Source: Verrucomicrobiota bacterium (GTDB lineage Bacteria; Verrucomicrobiota; Verrucomicrobiia; Limisphaerales; PALSA-1396). Taken from it: 64,000 nt of DNA. Where the stretch lies: positions 216,929 through 280,928 of the forward strand of contig JACQFP010000006.1 in assembly GCA_016200005.1 (NCBI GenBank), in the 5' to 3' direction. This document shows positions 9,144 to 62,201 of the stretch, piece by piece (the stretch's first letter is position 1; every line of letters starts with the position of its first letter). The translations under genes were made by a program, and so were the position numbers. The notes under the pieces were generated by a model. That model had not been told where the DNA came from. It did no database searches and saw only the letters and a program-made list of their open reading frames with translations.

Positions 9144-9228
9144 CCTGACCGGACCCACCCCAACCCCTCCAAGGAGGGGAGAACTGTTCAGCGCGCGCTG
9201 ACGCAGTTCCCCTCTTGGGAGGGGGTAG
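9144..9228. repeat. double-hairpin palindromic intergenic repeat, family B copy 1
   Basis: CCCACCCCAACCCCTCCAAGGAGGGGAG ... CTCCCCTCTTGGGAGGGGGTAGGGGTGGG. The arms are mutually inverted and each arm is itself a small hairpin. Related copies at 33310, 60560 and 61930. Confidence 0.8.
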
Positions 9229-9289
9229 GGGTGGGTTCCGTCTGCAGAAATGTATTTTGACAGTCGGTTTGGTTTCATAAACTACGCCT

Positions 9290-10222
9290 GTGACTGGCCA
9301 ACATGCTCAACCCGCAACCCTCAACTCTCAACCTCCCGGCTATCGCGGTCGCCTCGCGCCGTCGCCAACCGGCTTCTTGCATCTCGGTCACGCCCGCACC
9401 TTCTGGATTGCGCAGGCACGCGCGCGCTCCACTGGCGGCATACTGGTGTTACGCAACGAAGATATTGACGCCATGCGCTTCAAACTGGAGTTCGTCCCGG
9501 CGATGATCGAGGACCTGCGCTGGTTCGGTTTTGCGTGGCAAGAAGGGCCGGACTGCGGCGGGCCATTTGGTCCGTACAACCAAAGCCAGCGATTTCAATT
9601 CTACCGGGCCGCACTCGACAAACTACGAACCGACGGCTTCATTTACCCCTGCACCTGTTCGCGCAAAGATATTCAATCCGCTGCCCGCGCGCCGCACGCC
9701 AATGATGACGATGAACCAATCTATCCCGGCACCTGCCGCGCGCGAAAAGAGGTCAGAGGCCAGAAGTCAGATTTCGGAGTTCCGATTTCGGACCTCCGAC
9801 TTCCGACCTCCGACCTGCGCTTCAACTGGCGTTTCCGCGTCCCTGATGCCGAAACCATTTCCTTCACGGACGGCCACTACGGTCCGCAACAGTTCATCGC
9901 GGGAAACGATTTCGGCGACTTCGTTGTCTGGCGACACGATGATGTCCCTGCCTACCAACTCTCCGTCGTAGTGGACGATGCCGCCATGAAAATCACCGAA
10001 GTCGTGCGCGGCGCCGACCTGTTGAAATCCACAGCGCGCCAAATCCTCCTCTACCACGCGCTTGGTCTCCACCCACCTGCCTTTTATCATTGCCCGCTGC
10101 TGACCGATGAATCCGGTGCCCGGCTAGCCAAGCGCTACGATGCTCTCAGCCTGCGCAGACTCCGCGAGAGCGGTGGAACACCGGAATCCCTTCGCCAGCG
10201 ATGGCTTCAGTCGTTGCCTTGA
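9290..10222 (+). CDS. gluQ: glutamyl-Q tRNA(Asp) synthetase
   Basis: YRGRLAPSPTGFLHLGHARTFW (HIGH region), truncated GluRS catalytic core, 310 aa. Carries a low-complexity insert at 9750-9816. Confidence 0.8.
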   Translation: MTGQHAQPATLNSQPPGYRGRLAPSPTGFLHLGHARTFWIAQARARSTGGILVLRNEDIDAMRFKLEFVPAMIEDLRWFGFAWQEGPDCGGPFGPYNQSQRFQFYRAALDKLRTDGFIYPCTCSRKDIQSAARAPHANDDDEPIYPGTCRARKEVRGQKSDFGVPISDLRLPTSDLRFNWRFRVPDAETISFTDGHYGPQQFIAGNDFGDFVVWRHDDVPAYQLSVVVDDAAMKITEVVRGADLLKSTARQILLYHALGLHPPAFYHCPLLTDESGARLAKRYDALSLRRLRESGGTPESLRQRWLQSLP

Positions 10223-10226
10223 ATAT

Positions 10227-10424
10227 CGTAGGAGCCGAGGTAACGAGGCTCTGAGTGCTTGCACGAAAAAGCTGTTTGGTGTCCCAGCTTTAGCCGGCAA
10301 GCACGAACAACGCACGCTAAAGCCTGGACACCAAACGGTAAACTCTGCTCCCCGTCGCATTTCCGTACACGCTCTGACCATTCTATCTTCATTCAAAGTG
10401 AGCCTCGTTACCTCGGCTCCTACG
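10227..10424. repeat. 198-bp nested palindromic element (family C arms enclosing a family D hairpin)
   Basis: Perfect 25-bp inverted repeat CGTAGGAGCCGAGGTAACGAGGCTC (10227-10251) / GAGCCTCGTTACCTCGGCTCCTACG (10400-10424). Inner inverted repeat GTTTGGTGTCCCAGCTTTAGC (10274-10294) / GCTAAAGCCTGGACACCAAAC (10316-10336). Confidence 0.85.
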
Positions 10425-21953: not shown

Positions 21954-23663
21954 CTATTCCCTCGCCGTCTGCGCTGGAAGAGCCGAGAGCGGGACAAGCT
22001 TGTTCGTCTCGCTGAAATAATTTGCCGACCACTCGTTCTGAAACAGCGCCACGGGGTTCTTGCCAATGTCGTAGGCGAGCTTTGCGCCGGTCGGCAGCGA
22101 AAGGGCGTCGAGGTCGTCCTCCTTCAGGTCGGGCGGCAGCCAGCGCACGACCGTCCACGGGGCAGATTCAAGGCGTGACACCGCGCCGTATTCGCTTTCG
22201 AGACGGAATTGCACGACTTCGAATTGCAGTGGGCCAACCGCTGCGAGCAACGGCGTTTTCACCGATGAGTTGCGCAGATAAAGCGCCTGGATCACGCCCT
22301 CCTGCAAAAGCTGTTCGAGGCCCTGGCGGAATTGTTTGAACTTCGCGGTGTTCGGATTGTGCAGGTGCGCGAAGGCTTCGGGTGTGAAGCGCGGGATTTC
22401 CTTGTAGAGAATCTTGGGGTCGGTGGTGAGCGTGTCGCCGATGCCGAAGCTGTCGTGGCCGACGAGGCCGATGACGTCGCCGGGCCACGCCTCGTCCACC
22501 GTTTCGCGTTCGTTGCCGAAGAGTTTGTGCGAACTGGAGAGGCGAACTTTCTTCTCGGAGCGCGAGTGATGCACGGTCATGTCGCGCTCGAATTTGCCGG
22601 AGCAGACGCGGACAAACACGATGCGGTCGCGGTGCTTCGGGTCCATGTTCGCCTGAATCTTGAAGATGAACCCGGAGAACGCGGAATGCTCGGGAGGAAT
22701 GTAGCCGCCGACGTGAGGAGGCGGATTGGTTTGTTCACCGTTTCTGCCACCAGGCACGTTCCGCCTCGTCACCTCGGCGGCTACGAGGGCATTTCGCCCT
22801 TTCGGACCCGGCGCGTGTTTCAAGAAACCATCCAAGAGTAACTGCACACCGAAATTATTGAGGGCGCTGCCGAAAAACACCGGCGTGGTTTTGTCCGCCA
22901 GCACCGCGGTGTCATCCCAGTCGTGCCCGGCGTGTTCGAGCATTTCCAGTTCTTCGACCGTGTGATGGAACGTTCCGTCGTCGAGCCGACCGCGGATGAG
23001 TTCGTCATGCAATCCGCCGACCTGCACCGGCGCGCGGTATTGGCCGCCGACCGTGCGCTCGAAGAGGTGCATCTGTTGCGTCTGCCGATCGAACACGCCC
23101 TGGAACTCGAAGCCGTTGCCGATGGGCCAGTTCACGGGGAACGCGCCGATGCCGAGCACGCGCTCCAGTTCATCGAGCAACGCGAGCGGGTCTTTCATCG
23201 GGCGATCGCACTTGTTCATGAATGTGAAGATCGGCACGCCGCGCTGGCGGCAGACCTCGAAGAGCTTGCGCGTCTGCGGCTCGATGCCTTTGGCCGAATC
23301 AATCACCATCACCACCGAATCCACGGCGGTGAGGACGCGATAGGTGTCCTCGGAAAAATCCTTGTGACCCGGCGTGTCGAGCAGGTTGAGGCGGTAACCG
23401 TTGTAATCAAACTGCAAAACCGTGGAGCTGATCGAAATGCCGCGCTTCTTTTCCAGTTCCATCCAGTCGGACGTGGTGGCGCGCTGGTTTTTACGCGCCG
23501 TGACCGAGCCGGCGAGTTGCACCGCGCCGCCGTACAGCAGCAGCTTTTCCGTCAACGTGGTTTTACCCGCGTCCGGATGCGAGATGATGGCGAACGTGCG
23601 CCGCTTCGAGATTTCTTCCGTAATGCTCACAATCGAGCCGCAGAAGGTAGCAGACCGGTGCAT
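21954..23663 (-). CDS. prfC: peptide chain release factor 3
   Basis: RRTFAIISHPDAGKTTLTEKLLLYGG, DTPGHKDF, NKCDR, FKIQANMDPKHRDRIVFVRVCSG. Start set at ATG 23663 (a GTG slightly downstream is possible). Contains an 84-bp in-frame repeat. Confidence 0.9.
   Translation of the reverse strand: MHRSATFCGSIVSITEEISKRRTFAIISHPDAGKTTLTEKLLLYGGAVQLAGSVTARKNQRATTSDWMELEKKRGISISSTVLQFDYNGYRLNLLDTPGHKDFSEDTYRVLTAVDSVVMVIDSAKGIEPQTRKLFEVCRQRGVPIFTFMNKCDRPMKDPLALLDELERVLGIGAFPVNWPIGNGFEFQGVFDRQTQQMHLFERTVGGQYRAPVQVGGLHDELIRGRLDDGTFHHTVEELEMLEHAGHDWDDTAVLADKTTPVFFGSALNNFGVQLLLDGFLKHAPGPKGRNALVAAEVTRRNVPGGRNGEQTNPPPHVGGYIPPEHSAFSGFIFKIQANMDPKHRDRIVFVRVCSGKFERDMTVHHSRSEKKVRLSSSHKLFGNERETVDEAWPGDVIGLVGHDSFGIGDTLTTDPKILYKEIPRFTPEAFAHLHNPNTAKFKQFRQGLEQLLQEGVIQALYLRNSSVKTPLLAAVGPLQFEVVQFRLESEYGAVSRLESAPWTVVRWLPPDLKEDDLDALSLPTGAKLAYDIGKNPVALFQNEWSANYFSETNKLVPLSALPAQTARE
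22701..22784. repeat. family C palindromic element inserted in-frame in prfC
   Basis: GTAGCCGCCGACGTGAGGAGGCGGA (22701-22725) and TCCGCCTCGTCACCTCGGCGGCTAC (22760-22784) are inverted repeats (23/25 match). At 84 bp (28 codons) it is translated as VAAEVTRRNVPGGRNGEQTNPPPHVGGY. Confidence 0.85.
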
Positions 23664-28761: not shown

Positions 28762-29011
28762 GTTTTGCCTTTCTATTGATACGTGTTGATTTTGTTCTGT
28801 CCATGATACAACGAATGAGCAGGTGCATTCGAGACAATGTCGCCCAAAAATTTTGACCAGCCAGGCAGTCTCGTCAACTTCTCTTTCTCCGTTTCTTCCT
28901 TTTTGATCCACCAGGGCTTTGTTGCGGAGGCGACAGGAGTTCAGCTTGCGAATAAGACATTGAATCTGTCATTTACGAGCAAGCCGCTTGATGCTACGGT
29001 TCTGCCGCCCC

Positions 29012-29827
29012 ATGACACTCAAACCGACCAGCACAAACGGAAGCGACCGGCGCGGCTTCACGTTGATTGAATTGCTGGTGGTCATTGCCATCATTGCGAT
29101 CCTTGCCGGATTATTGCTGCCCGCTCTGGCCAAGGCAAAATACAGCGGCCAGCGCGCCGCGTGCTTGAACAACATCAAGCAGCAATACCTGAGTCAAATC
29201 ATGTATGCGGACGACGCCAGCGGAAAGTTTCCTTATCACGAGGATCTCAGCCCGGATTACCACCGCACTAGCATCACGGGCAAGCGCAGCATCGTGGATG
29301 CGATGCGCGGCACTTATGTCAAGAACACGCGCATCCTCATCTGCCCCATTACCGCGAACGGCGTCGGCAAGACGTGGTTGAATTATGCCAACCCGGCCAG
29401 TTTCGCGGACAAGACCACTACGGATTACGGCGGATGGGACACCACGGCATCTTACGTTTTCACGCCCTACATGTGGTTTGCGAATTTCACTGCCACTCCC
29501 GCAATGAAATTTCTCAATTCCCAGGGCGCGGTGAGCGCCAATCCCGAGGACAATGAACCTGCGTGGCCGACGAAGACCTCCGAACTGGACAGTCGCCGGG
29601 CGTTCATCACGCATCGCGTCAGCGACACTCCGGGCACCGCTCTGTGGGACCTCGGGCATCTCGGCAGTTTCGGCGGAGGCACGCAAACCAAACCGCTTTG
29701 GTCCTGGGCCCTCACACCGGATCAACCCGTATGTCAAGCTGACGGCAGCGTCATCATCCGTCAAAAGACCCAAATCCGGGCGCGCGCCTTGGGCGGGCCG
29801 AGTCCCGACACGAAGTATTATTATTGA
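29012..29827 (+). CDS. prepilin-type N-terminal cleavage/methylation domain protein
   Basis: [31 protein letters not shown], the classic type IV pilin-like leader as seen in PVC-group DUF1559-like proteins. Confidence 0.85.
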
Positions 29828-29841
29828 AACTTTAGCGGGCC

Positions 29842-29911
29842 GTGGCAGCCGACGTGAGTCGGCTCTGACTTTCGGCGAATTCAGATGAAGCGGACTGACG
29901 TCCGCTGCTAC
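29842..29911. repeat. family C palindromic intergenic element
   Basis: GTGGCAGCCGACGTGAGTCGGCT (29842-29864) pairs with AGCGGACTGACGTCCGCTGCTAC (29889-29911) as an imperfect inverted repeat. It shares the GTAGSAGCCGA...TCGGCTSCTAC consensus with 10227, 10400 and 22701. Confidence 0.7.
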
Positions 29912-33309: not shown

Positions 33310-33388
33310 ACCCACCCCCAGCCCCTCCCAAGAGGGGAGCGGCGCACGGTGGATTGTTCCCCTCCCGGGAGGGGTCAGGGGTGGGTAG
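33310..33388. repeat. family B double-hairpin repeat, copy 2
   Basis: CCCACCCCCAGCCCCTCCCAAGAGGGGAG...TTCCCCTCCCGGGAGGGGTCAGGGGTGGG, between coxG-like and coxM-like genes. Confidence 0.8.
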
Positions 33389-38145: not shown

Positions 38146-40281
38146 ATGATTTGGATCGCCCCATCCGAAAAGGACACCGACAACGCCGCACTCGAAAAAC
38201 GCCTCTGGGACGCCGCTGACCAGTTCCGCGCCAACTCCGGCCTCAAGTCCCAGGAATACTCCGCGCCCGTCCTCGGCCTCATCTTCCTGCGCTTCGCCGA
38301 GGTTCGCTTCGCTGCCCAGCGCGCCAAGCTGGAGAAAGCCAGCGCCTCCGCCCGCCGTGGATCACGGCTGGATGAACCCGCCGCCTATCACGCCGAGGGC
38401 ATCCTCTATCTGCCCGCCGAAGCGCGGTTCGATTACCTGCTCAACCGCCCCGAAGCCGAGAACATCGGCGCGAAGGTCAATGCCGCCATGCGCGACATCG
38501 AGAAGCACAACCCGCAACTCGCTGGCGTCCTGCCCAAGACCTACAACCTCTTCACCAGCACCCTGCTCAAGGAACTACTCAAGAAAGTCTCCGAGATTCC
38601 CGCCTCGCTGGACTACGACGCCTTCGGGCGCATCTACGAATACTTCCTCGGCGAGTTCGCCATGAGCGAGGGTCAGGGCGGCGGCGAATTTTACACCCCC
38701 AGCAGCATCGTCCGCCTCCTCACCGAAGTGATTGAACCCTATCACGGGCGCATCCTCGACCCCGCGTGCGGTTCGGGCGGCATGTTCGTCTCCTCCGCGC
38801 GCTTCGTCTCCGAGCACAAGCGGCAAGCTGCCGCTGGCAAATCTTCTCCCTCGCCCCTCGGAGGGGAGAGGGCCGGGGTGAGGGGTGAAAACTATTCCGG
38901 TGATCCATCCAAAGAACTCTCCATCCACGGCGTCGAGAAAACCGACGAAACCGGCCGCCTCTGCCGCCTGAACCTCGCCGTCCACGGCCTCGAAGGCGAA
39001 ATCAAACACGGCGGCAACATCAACAGCTACTACGACGACCCGCACGACGCCACCGGCCGCTTCGACTTCGTCCTCGCCAACCCGCCGTTCAACGTCAACG
39101 CCGTGGACAAGGAGCGGTTGAAAGACATGGTCGGCCCAGGCCGCCGCTTCCCCTTCGGCCTGCCGCGCACTGACAACGCCAATTACCTCTGGATTCAACT
39201 CTTCTATTCTTCGTTGAAGAATGGGGAGGCCGGAACTTCCGGCGGGCGGGCCGGCTTCGTCATGGCCAACTCCGCCTCCGACGCCCGCTCCTCCGAACAG
39301 GAACTCCGCCGCCAGCTCATCGAAAGCCGCGCCGTGGACGTGATGGTCGCCGTCGGCCCGAACCTCTTCTACACCGTCACGCTCCCCTGCACCCTCTGGT
39401 TCTTCGACAAGGGCAAGGGCAAAAGTGGGCGCACCGACTCGGTGCTGTTCATTGATGCCCGCCACATCTACCGGCAGGTGGACCGCGCGCACCGCGAATG
39501 GACGCCCGCGCAGATTGGCTTCCTCGCCAACCTCGTCCGCCTCTATCGCGGCGAAGCCCTCGACTTCACATTGGGTGGCGAAGAAGCGAAGGCCAAAATC
39601 CTTGAAGTGTTCGCCACCCAACCCTCACCCCATCCCTCTCCCAACGGGAGAGGGGGCTACAAGTTTGCCGGATTGGTCGAACGTGGTCGGGAATTGCGAA
39701 AGAAGCAGACGCCAGCCGAGGCGGTCCTGTGGGAAGTGTTGCGTGACCGGCAGTTTGAAAATCTGAAATTCCGGCGGCAACATCAGGCGGGCGATTACCT
39801 CGTGGATTTCTTCTGCCACGAACACAGCCTCGTCGTGGAGGCTGACGGCGACGTTCACGATGCTGGCTATCAGAAGAAGCACGACAAGAAGCGCGATGCA
39901 TGGCTGCGAGGACAGGGGTTCACGGTCCTGCGTTTTCGCAACGAGGACATCTTGAACGATCTTGAATCGGTGCTCGGGAAAATCGCCGCCGCTCTCCCTT
40001 CTCCCGCTGGGAGAAGGGCCGGGGATGAGGGTGACTGCAAGGTCGCGTATCGCGATGTTGCAGGCTTATGCCGCGCCGCCACGCTCAAGGAAATCGAAGC
40101 GCAAGGCTGGTCGCTCAACCCCGGCCGCTACGTCGGCGTGGCCGCCGGCGAAGCCGTGAGCGACGAGGACTTCAAGGAACAACTCGAAACGCTGAACGAG
40201 GAACTCGAAACCCTCAACGCCCAAGCGCGCGACCTCGAACAAACCATCGCCGGCAACGTGGCGGAGATTCTGGAGGCGTGA
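38146..40281 (+). CDS. hsdM: Type I restriction-modification methyltransferase subunit HsdM, carrying two in-frame insertions
   Basis: HsdM_N ([13 protein letters not shown]), AdoMet motif [11 protein letters not shown], catalytic ANPPFN, C-terminal [25 protein letters not shown]. At 711 aa it is longer than I expect for HsdM. Inserts at 38844-38887 and 39622-40031. Confidence 0.9.
38844..38887. repeat. family A ([11 protein letters not shown]) hairpin element inserted in-frame in hsdM
   Basis: TTCTCCCTCGCCCCTCGGAGGGGAGAGGGCCGGGGTGAGGGGTG, with inner stem CCCTCGCCCCTC/GAGGGGAGAGGG plus the right outer arm GGGGTGAGGGG. Translated as [16 protein letters not shown] between motif I and the rest of the methylase core. 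Confidence 0.75.
39622..40031 (+). mobile_element. inverted-repeat-bounded DUF559 (Vsr-like endonuclease domain) cassette inserted in-frame in hsdM
   Basis: Left end CCCTCACCCCATCCCTCTCCC (39622-39642), right end GGGAGAAGGGCCGGGGATGAGGG (40009-40031), imperfectly inverted. The interior encodes [58 protein letters not shown]...[17 protein letters not shown]. Boundaries are +/- a few nt. Confidence 0.7.
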
Positions 40282-51652: not shown

Positions 51653-51957
51653 GCCCGGCGCAGTAAAACGTGGAACAAGCCCGCTCGCAATTGCAATTAA
51701 CTCGTCAGTCATTGGCGGCACAGGGCAATGTCCGTGGAGCAATCGAGTCACCAAGATTGTGCCGTCAGTTGACGGCTACATAATGGAGTTAAGATTTCCA
51801 AAAAACTTTTTCACAAGTTCCGGGCAAGTTTGCTTCAATTCGGCACCCCGGAGGTTTGCAGGCGTCTGTGCGAGCTTTTTGTTTCGCAGTTTCGTAGTGC
51901 GTAAAGTAAAGGGGTCGGTTCTGAATGGCCCTTAGATAAGGCCCATAAAGTAAAGTA

Positions 51958-52988
51958 AAGGGGTCGGTTCTTGGTATTGACAACTGTTGATGGGCGGTTC
52001 ACTCTCCCATCCATGGCGCGCAAGTTACGAGTGGAATATCCGGGGGCGATTTATCATGTGATGAATCGCGGCGACCGGCGTGAGGAGATTTTCAAGGATG
52101 ACCCGGATCGGGAGCGCTTTCTGGAAGCGCTCGGCGAGGTGTGCAAGAAGACCGGCTGGCAGGTTCATGCGTTGTGCTTGATGGAGAATCATTTTCATCT
52201 GGTGGTAGAGACGCCGCAGGGCAATTTGGTGGCGGGCATGAAATGGTTTCTGGGCACTTACACTTCGCGGTTCAATCGTCGTCACAAGTTGTTCGGGCAT
52301 CTGTTCAGCGGTCGTTACAAGGCGTTGGTGGTGGATGGCAGTGGCAGCGGGTATTTGAAGACGGTCTGTGATTACGTGCACTTGAATCCGGCGCGGGCGA
52401 AATTGTTGTCAGCGGACGAATCGTTGAGAAGTTATCGTTGGAGCAGTTGGCCGGAATACTTGAAGCGGCCCGGCAATCGCTGGCCGTGGTTGCGGGTGGA
52501 TCGCTTGCTGGGTGAGTATCGGATTCCCGAGGACAACGCGGCGGGGCGGCGGCACTTGGAACAGGAACTGGAAGCGCGGCGCCAGGCGGAATCGGGAGCG
52601 GATTACAGAGCGATTCGACGGGGCTGGTGTCTGGGTGAGAAAGCCTTTCGCGAGGGATTGCTGGAGCAAATGAGCGAGCGCTTGGGCGCGGAGCACTACG
52701 GAGAGGAGCGGTTGGAGACGGGGACGGAGAAGGCGGAACGGATTATCCGCGAGGAATTGAAACAACGGCGCTGGAAGGAACGAGATCTGGCGAAGCGGGC
52801 CAAGGGTGATGTTGAGAAGGTAAAACTGGCCGGACGATTGCGTGAAGAAACGACGGTGACGGTGAAGTGGATTGCGGAGCGGCTTGAGATGGGGACGGCG
52901 GGTTACGTGAACAACCGGCTGTATCGCTGGCGCAAAGGAACGTTGCCTAAGTGAGCATGGAGTGACTGATACCAAGAACCGACCCCTT
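51958..52988 (+). mobile_element. REP-flanked RAYT unit (IS200/IS605-like Y1 transposase bounded by a perfect 20-bp inverted repeat)
   Basis: AAGGGGTCGGTTCTTGGTAT at 51958-51977 and its exact reverse complement at 52969-52988. An extra partial direct copy AGTAAAGGGGTCGGTTCT lies at 51905-51922. Confidence 0.8.
52013..52954 (+). CDS. REP-associated tyrosine transposase (RAYT, Y1_Tnp/IS200-like) with charged C-terminal extension
   Basis: YPGAIYHVMNRG, LCLMENHFHLVVETP (HuH motif), FSGRYKALVV (catalytic Tyr context). Start at ATG 52013. Confidence 0.85.
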   Translation: MARKLRVEYPGAIYHVMNRGDRREEIFKDDPDRERFLEALGEVCKKTGWQVHALCLMENHFHLVVETPQGNLVAGMKWFLGTYTSRFNRRHKLFGHLFSGRYKALVVDGSGSGYLKTVCDYVHLNPARAKLLSADESLRSYRWSSWPEYLKRPGNRWPWLRVDRLLGEYRIPEDNAAGRRHLEQELEARRQAESGADYRAIRRGWCLGEKAFREGLLEQMSERLGAEHYGEERLETGTEKAERIIREELKQRRWKERDLAKRAKGDVEKVKLAGRLREETTVTVKWIAERLEMGTAGYVNNRLYRWRKGTLPK

Positions 52989-53058
52989 CGCTGTCGAGTT
53001 GCTGCTCACAAAAACCGGATTGCACTTCGGGCTGCGCTCGACCATAACTCTGCCCAAG

Positions 53059-56298: not shown

Positions 56299-56362
56299 GC
56301 ACCCTAAAGGGTGGACACCGAACCGTCGCGGCCCTGTTTGGTGTCCACCCTTTAGGGTGTGC
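56299..56362. repeat. family D hairpin (GGTGTCCACCCTTTAGGGTG type)
   Basis: CACCCTAAAGGGTGGACACC (56300-56319) and its exact complement GGTGTCCACCCTTTAGGGTG (56340-56359). Related to the inner arms at 10274-10336. Confidence 0.8.
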
Positions 56363-60227: not shown

Positions 60228-60559
60228 ATGGCTTTTGTAGCGTGAAGTTTGACAGAGATCAACTTGTCTGTTGGATGCGTTGGAGTTCACGCTTCAGCGT
60301 GTCAGGACGACGTTAGCATCGTGGTGACGAGGCTAAACTATGCAGTTGAATACACCCATTTCCATGAACCTTGTAGCGCAGCCGTCCCGGCTGCGAGTTC
60401 GTGCGGCGTCTCGCCGCTCGGAAAAACACGGAGCGGGACGCCCCGTGAACTCGCAGGCGAGGACGCCCGCGCTACGACCGCAGTCCGAGTTCAGAGATTC
60501 AAGGCGCGAATTGTTTCGGGGAGTTCTCACCCGGGCGCGCCCCATCGACCTGCTGCCAG

Positions 60560-60640
60560 CCCACCCACCCCGGACCCCTCCCAGGAGGGGAACAATCCCA
60601 CGTGCGTTGCTCCCCTCCTGGGAGGGGCTGGGGGTGGGTT
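60560..60640. repeat. family B double-hairpin repeat, copy 3 (with extended flanks 60489-60700)
   Basis: CCCACCCACCCCGGACCCCTCCCAGGAGGGGAA...CTCCCCTCCTGGGAGGGGCTGGGGGTGGG. The left flank GTTCAGAGATTCAAGGCGCGAATTGTTTCGGGGAGTTCTCACC... is repeated in inverted form at 62038-62105. Confidence 0.8.
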
Positions 60641-61929: not shown

Positions 61930-62035
61930 AACCCGCCGCCAGCCCCTCCCAGGTGGGGAGCGGCCCGCCTGCTTCGCGGTGGGCAGGCGCACGGTCGCTT
62001 GCTTCCCTCTTGGGAGGGGTCAGGGGTGGGTTGGG
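61930..62035. repeat. family B double-hairpin repeat, copy 4 (with extended flanks 61868-62105)
   Basis: CCGCCGCCAGCCCCTCCCAGGTGGGGAG...TTCCCTCTTGGGAGGGGTCAGGGGTGGG. Flanked on both sides by GAGAATTCCCCGAAAG motifs. Confidence 0.75.
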
Positions 62036-62201
62036 TTGGCAGCAGGTCCATGGGGAGCGCCGGGGTGAGAATTCCCCGAAAGATTCGCGCATTGAACCCC
62101 TGAACTGCCCGGACAAATTTATGTTGCATATGCAACATGAAACTGTCCGAGCGGTTCATGGAGAGGGGGCGTTCAACACCGTCGTTCCGGCTCGGACCTG
62201 A

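Follow-up and report, generated by a model that had tools for sequence, protein, structure and literature searches.

Introduction

How does a hairpin-forming repeat come to lie in frame within the gene of a translation factor, and what keeps it there? This question is raised by prfC, the gene of release factor 3 (RF3), in a 64,000-nucleotide stretch of a Verrucomicrobiota contig (the window hereafter), whose host is a soil verrucomicrobium of a Pedosphaera-like lineage. The gene (21954–23630, minus strand, GTG start) encodes 558 aa with intact GTPase and RF3 domains, and its product is 100% identical to a database protein, P0001, from a Verrucomicrobia MAG. A preliminary description assigned the insert to a palindromic "family C", here called the GCCGA-type GTAG family; the families found in relatives are called GTTYGG-type, GACAGGCG-type and GGCACAGGC-type, likewise after their arm cores. 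The core of that description, a dispersed palindromic repeat in frame in prfC, is right, and its overall interpretation is partly supported. Its label of an essential-type gene is doubtful, since RF3 is dispensable in E. coli.

We consider, with a probability of about 0.8, that a mobile REPIN-like GTAG doublet inserted in the RF3 linker, persisted there as a tolerated loop and was later overwritten by other families. The alternatives are weighed below where the evidence bears on them.

Anatomy of the element in prfC

The element is a GTAG REP doublet of 84 bp (22701–22784, minus strand). It amounts to exactly 28 codons, corresponding to residues 283–310 of the 558-aa RF3 and to the predicted peptide VAAEVTRRNVPGGRNGEQTNPPPHVGGY. 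In agreement with the preliminary description on the inverted repeat, the reading frame and the length, we have recovered two arms of 25 nt each, 34 nt apart, with 23 of 25 positions (92%) complementary. The 5' arm of the sense strand (22760–22784, minus strand) is GTAGCCGCCGAGGTGACGAGGCGGA, which consists of GTAG, a 5-bp stem, a tandem G.A and a G:C pair closing a GTGA loop. The second arm (22701–22725, plus strand), GTAGCCGCCGACGTGAGGAGGCGGA, carries the C:G allele at positions 12:17, and the spacer lies between them at 22726–22759 on the minus strand.

Each arm is GTAG plus a small hairpin of its own (CCGCC, GA, S, GTGA, S, GA, GGCGG), and each folds alone. At positions 12 and 17, the two mismatches between the arms amount to a swap from C:G to G:C in the pair that closes the intra-arm tetraloop; judged from the sequence, they are a compensatory swap and no sign of decay. 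Since the intra-arm hairpin is kept by this swap, the unit is better described as a doublet of REPs than as one long, simple palindrome. The arm pattern occurs at only two sites in the window, where none is expected according to 100 dinucleotide shuffles. An Rfam scan of the window at the gathering score gave two tRNAs only, with no match for the prfC insert.

The sense-strand RNA of the insert is predicted to form a single long hairpin (-56.3 kcal/mol, z = -6.9), and none of 200 shuffles folds equally well. A local effect of the insert on mRNA structure is therefore plausible as far as the folding model goes. This predicted stability speaks for a different explanation, in which the insert is kept for its nucleic-acid form, i.e., as an mRNA hairpin that pauses ribosomes or sets the stability of prfC mRNA, or as REP stem-loops bound by a protein. 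The orthologous copy L208 adds to it with a compensatory change from G:C to A:T at arm positions 12:17. On the other hand, the arm-to-arm helix keeps its two mismatches and falls to 17 of 25 matches in L208, and with the further evidence given below we regard this explanation as unlikely.

Position of the insert in RF3

The insert lies in the linker that joins the G domain of RF3 to domain II. Measured from the end of the final helix of the G domain to the FSGFxFKIQANMDP strand, this linker has 14–25 aa, mostly 18, in about 70 RF3s from other phyla among the matches listed. These RF3s come from a contig scan whose listed matches are mostly from distant phyla, and they were used solely as an outgroup for linker length. 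The linker is accordingly shorter elsewhere, E. coli included, as stated in the preliminary description, and the distant taxa carry no homologous insert, palindromic or otherwise. In a solved RF3 structure (7siq), query residues 3–281 and 308–521 align to chain residues 12–290 and 292–502. Since chain residues 290 and 292 flank the insert, it has no counterpart in the structure and replaces nothing.

In an AF2 model of the window RF3 (pLDDT 68, pTM 0.61, TM about 0.6 to RF3 structures), residues 284–307 are given as coil and have a pLDDT below 50, while the flanks on both sides are well modelled. This is the second of two models; the first was set aside as too poor (pLDDT 54.8). The mapping thus places the insert in the interdomain linker as a predicted disordered coil.

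Related copies in the window

Three GTAG-type doublets lie within the 64-kb window, of which two follow a stop codon closely, at a distance of 6 and 15 nt. The first of these two (10228–10423; stem GAGCC/GGCTC) starts 6 nt past the stop of the ORF at 9290–10222 and has a 146-nt spacer between 25-nt arms. A palindrome is nested in this spacer at 10274–10336, namely a GTTYGGTGTCC-plus-hairpin repeat of the family that fills the RF3 slot of the relative L001. The other, a GTGG/GTAG doublet with fully paired 7-bp stems (29842–29911), lies 15 nt past the stop of the ORF at 28988–29827; its stems at 29842 and 29911 are AGCCGAC/GTCGGCT and AGCGGAC/GTCCGCT, in the same architecture as the prfC arms. 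All six units in the window show GTAG or GTGG followed by a hairpin. The preliminary description had listed these intergenic copies as having the same arm consensus. They are indeed present, with arms at 10228–10252/10399–10423 and 29842–29866/29887–29911, but they are related to the prfC arms rather than the same sequence (72–76% identity in a base-by-base count), and their stems differ compensatorily. A 13-nt match to the arm core at 38711 was rejected as a chance match inside a methylase-like ORF.

Other repeats are also found in the window. GTTYGGTGTCC-plus-hairpin repeats occur at 56300–56359, where two units face inward. A further palindromic family, ACCCACCCC...CCCCTCCCAGGAGGGGA plus complement, has four intergenic copies (9147–9242, 33310–33386, 60563–60639 and 61930–62032), and the repeat-rich stretch of 60.3–62.2 kb holds two more inverted repeats, at 60388–60459 and at 62098–62161 (27-nt arms; 35-nt overlapping palindrome).

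The dispersed GCCGA-type family

We have scanned metagenomes with GTAGNNGCCGASGTRASGAGGC and obtained at least 120 loci. The loci listed contain at least 165 exact units, at least 90 outward-facing doublets and 64 unpaired single units. Their doublet spacers measure 8–152 nt, with no relation between the spacers of different copies, and the stems fall into three subfamilies, the two arms of one doublet nearly always belonging to the same one.

The hairpin within the arm is maintained across these copies. At positions 12:17, where the search pattern permitted all four combinations, the 165 exact units listed have C:G in 113, G:C in 48, G:G in 4 and C:C in none. In the 119 distinct arms listed, the same pair is C:G in 65 and G:C in 37, together 87%, and the stem covaries at 6:23 (A:T 61, C:G 34), at 8:21 (C:G 102, A:T 7) and also at 9:20, with the tandem G.A/A.G and the GTRA loop conserved. 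No excess of mixed arm alleles within doublets is found: 34 are observed against about 32 expected in our own calculation from the allele frequencies.

Short, palindromic, non-coding when taken alone and present in many copies, such elements could be conventional MITEs, which represent the terminal inverted repeats of a DDE transposon. We find this hardly credible. A fixed-length target-site duplication is absent from the 88 doublets listed, of which 72 show no duplication at all and the remainder 1–3 nt direct repeats, as by chance. Moreover, the arms carry a GTAG tag with an internal hairpin and also occur singly (the 64 unpaired units), and the spacers are unrelated between copies. The base that precedes GTAG is a pyrimidine in 77% of the cases listed.

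The family is also found in frame in other genes: in HypF (between two domains), valyl-tRNA synthetase ValS, an SNF2 helicase, an Lhr helicase (two copies), an Eco57I-type methylase, a class III aminotransferase and URO-D. An ORF of an FtsX-type permease (L185, 9209–12664) has three palindromic inserts in frame, two GCCGA-type and one GTTYGG-type. Of the possible frames, the in-frame GCCGA-type inserts use only the two that lack TAG.

As a separate observation, many doublets with spacers of 43–44 nt have four tandem 7-nt units between their arms (e.g., GAAATCC, CGGACTT). Examples are L114 2490–2583, L131 1577, L172 687, L174 899 and L135 617, among others, and such a spacer in valS is read as EKSEIRNPKSE.

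Occupancy and probable turnover of the RF3 slot in relatives

The preliminary description regarded the insertion as unusual, which does not hold for this lineage. At least 8 extra residues are present at the linker site in 231 of the 239 RF3s from two verrucomicrobial classes, the same family is in frame in the other genes named above, and such inserts were published in 2013 (PMC3733652). No other site in the 239 proteins shows an internal insertion of 8 or more residues. In the 120 close RF3s (84–93% identical), the insert occupies exactly the same slot in 111; 8 have an 18-aa linker and one, P0113, keeps a 20-aa remnant.

At least four unrelated palindromic families fill this slot in close relatives, where they form near-perfect DNA hairpins of different sequence: GTAGCCGCCGASGTGACGAGGCGGA in the window and L004, GTTCGGAGTCCCGCCTTCAGGCGGC in L001 (GTTYGG-type), GTAGGACAGGCGTCGCGCCTGTCTC in L002 (GACAGGCG-type) and GTAGTGGCACAGGCTTCCAGCCTGTG in L006. 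Composite forms exist as well. In L007, a left GTTYGG arm is followed by another palindrome, and in P0056 and P0075 a second palindrome of the L007 type is nested between both GTTYGG arms. In the clade of L005, with about 20 proteins, a 43-aa linker is retained and the hairpin fold is lost. The GTTYGG and GACAGGCG families are also found outside prfC, within a pooled 2 Mb of loci, and there is little evidence for the GGCACAGGC family. In the 10–20 kb that flank the prfC of a relative, its own slot family hardly occurs again.

The gene tree does not predict which family fills the slot, since sister prfC genes carry different insert families. In a neighbour-joining tree of 9 taxa, built on codons with the insert excluded, three pairs are seen: L004 (GCCGA-type) and L002 (GACAGGCG-type), with a bootstrap support of 100%; the window and L001 (GTTYGG-type), with 82%; and L006 and L007, with 84%. 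Monophyly of the insert-bearing forms receives 14% support in this tree, which places the insert-free forms neither as basal nor otherwise. All insert-bearing alleles have the flanks GPKGR...FI.PE in common, whereas the insert-free alleles differ (PKSRVMGGIEISPE). Such common flanks make repeated independent hits on a naive site less likely than replacement in place.

These observations bear on two of the alternatives. If the insert were kept for its nucleic-acid form, any strong palindrome could substitute for another, which would explain both the replacement of families and the free spacer, and its retention in 111 of 120 close homologues would fit. That a whole clade such as that of L005 lost palindromy and kept the 43-aa linker, and that insert-free RF3s exist among close relatives, is hard to reconcile with it. 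The second alternative is an adaptive peptide, where a longer flexible interdomain linker tunes the dynamics of RF3 on the ribosome and the repeats are only raw material. It could draw on the fact that this is the sole expanded site, in 231 of 239 RF3s, and that decayed inserts hold the 43-aa length in about 20 sequences. Nevertheless, the inserted sequences are unrelated between families, with 12 to about 50 extra residues, and insert-free and nearly deleted (P0113) forms persist; we hold this alternative to be very unlikely.

Translational bypassing and intein-like removal were also considered and rejected, as every insert is in frame and stop-free in a database that, by a bias of its own, holds full-length predicted proteins only.

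In the Opitutae (P0121–P0240), nearly all RF3 linkers, from residue ~276 onward, have 26–69 aa and are very variable, at the same site. Some hold short tandem motifs, e.g., KSQIADLKS and NPKSKIEN. At the DNA level, the Opitutae linkers of L016, L018 and L021 are expanded and are not significantly palindromic now.

Conservation of the arms and drift of the spacer

Five prfC copies are of the GCCGA type (window, L004, L208, L209 and L210), all with 84 nt and a 34-nt spacer. This identical layout indicates descent from one insertion. Their arms are 88.8% identical, while the spacer, constant in length, is only about half identical in sequence (49.7%). At four-fold sites, the identity is 87% in the arms (81/93) and 65% gene-wide (1510/2320), with a Fisher p of 3e-6 that is inflated since the pairs share history. 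The three GACAGGCG-type copies give a similar picture, with arms identical at 24–26 of 25–26 positions versus 65–69% at four-fold sites gene-wide. In the prfC arms, nonsynonymous differences are as common as synonymous ones and the third positions are the conserved ones, so the constraint does not act on the peptide, which counts further against an adaptive peptide.

Pure neutrality does not predict such conserved arms, and this counts against our preferred explanation. Arms conserved beyond synonymous expectation in two families are what a role of the nucleic acid would give. The arms are, however, invariant across lineages rather than covarying, and REPINs in general combine conserved arms with a loose spacer (bioRxiv 10.1101/2021.07.10.451892). 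The conservation at one locus across species could be due to selection, to homogenisation by other copies or to re-insertion.

A stronger version takes the RF3 linker as a maintained landing pad, where sequence-specific purifying selection acts on the arms as DNA or RNA, through a REP-recognising protein or a translation-timing hairpin. If so, the families would replace one another since each supplies that function. We give this reading a small chance.

Candidate mobilising enzyme

The window has a single candidate for the mobilising enzyme, a RAYT-like Y1 (HUH) transposase gene of 313 aa (52013–52954, plus strand; Pfam Y1_Tnp, E = 1e-15). Within NCBIfam, it scores best against the model of REP-associated tyrosine transposases, with 48.7 bits, below the cut-off of 80 bits. 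The gene is flanked by repeats of its own, AAAGGGGTCGGTTCT, at 51908–51922, 51957–51971 and 52975–52989, two direct and one inverted, which do not belong to the GCCGA-type family. These flanks and the score below the cut-off do not tie the Y1 gene to the GCCGA family, which counts against our preferred explanation. No other copies of AAAGGGGTCGGTTCT occur in the window or the fetched loci. In about 120 repeat-bearing loci listed, no intact homologue of the Y1 gene is found, the sole match being a short fragment in L197. The Y1 protein, within the region 51908–52989, also continues for ~180 residues past its Y1 domain, as a long C-terminal extension.

Origin of the insert and its significance

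Based on the above analyses, the history of the insert may be outlined as follows. In an ancestor of this verrucomicrobial lineage, an inverted GTAG REP doublet would have entered the coding sequence of the prfC linker, probably mobilised by a Y1/RAYT-type transposase via single-stranded hairpins. It would then be translated, as we assume, as 28 extra residues. It could persist because its length is a multiple of three, the frame used has no stop, and only a disordered surface loop is added; the inserted peptide itself is probably neutral. The linker of the G domain and domain II may be the only site in RF3 that tolerates insertions, or a site that is targeted. Turnover would follow when other palindromic elements insert into the resident one, as the nested forms suggest, and subsequent partial deletions would result in a slot with another family, with a decayed remnant or with no more than an extended linker. 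We infer this route of nested insertion and deletion from the composite alleles.

REP dimers in frame in genes of verrucomicrobia are already on record, also for RF3, and a single further case adds little. The interest lies in one codon slot that offers a natural series of fresh, nested, decayed, nearly deleted and empty (ancestral) states in proteins of 84–93% identity. Such a series makes measurable how selfish palindromes create and remodel a linker, how fast they turn over, and whether the arms are kept up by selection or by homogenisation. In addition, peptides that derive from the repeat, such as VAAEVTRR...PPPHVGGY, will turn up in many proteins of these genomes that are otherwise unrelated, where they can be mistaken for homology.

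Comparison with known systems

The family matches the GTAG REPs and REPINs in its tag, the adjoining stem-loop, the inverted doublets with a looser spacer and the absence of target-site duplication. REPINs mobilised by RAYTs are likewise built from two inverted REPs around a spacer of lower conservation, show long vertical persistence and make no target-site duplications (Bertels and Rainey 2011, PMC3116915; bioRxiv 10.1101/2021.07.10.451892). They are, however, described as almost exclusively extragenic, whereas the doublet of the window is intragenic and no cognate RAYT flanked by its family has been found. The arrangement of the Y1 gene resembles the 'TIRtron' of PMC3733652 rather than a REP-flanked gene.

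Rickettsia palindromic elements resemble the prfC insert as palindromic repeats in frame in functional protein genes. They differ in being CGTC-tagged and in belonging to an obligate intracellular alphaproteobacterium (per PMC3733652), and they have no sequence relation to the window family. An identity with them was rejected, as our units start with GTAG and not with CGTC.

The closest precedent is the work of Di Nocera, De Gregorio and Rocco in 2013, who found GTAG REPs in the PVC group (PMC3733652). In that study, intragenic GTAG REP dimers of Opitutus terrae are in frame and encode 20–30 aa, different REPs occupy about the same site in recB of two Xanthomonas species, and the suggestion is made that such inserts occupy flexible linkers or loops. 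A GTAG-17 dimer at residues 304–318 of the O. terrae RF3 (Oter_2700, 583 aa) is among the entries of its Additional file 3. In Opitutaceae RF3s of 542–557 aa, the linker starts at residue 276–277, and if a 26-aa longer N-terminus is assumed for Oter_2700, residues 304–318 fall in the same linker. By this residue arithmetic, the matches not including the O. terrae RF3 itself, its dimer would lie in the same linker as the insert of the window. The O. terrae REPs share with the window family the GTAG tag, the short stem-loop, the inverted dimers with variable spacers and, as far as the two extragenic copies in the window go, a position adjoining the 3' ends of ORFs. On the other hand, their peptides VGPALAAG and GTGVPPV do not match ours, and the lineage is Opitutae rather than Pedosphaera-like. 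The 2013 study does not deal with the occupancy of the RF3 site across a clade, with one family taking the place of another there, or with arms that stay conserved between species; the clade-wide occupancy, the replacement of families, the nested intermediates and the conservation of the arms at the nucleotide level are new here.
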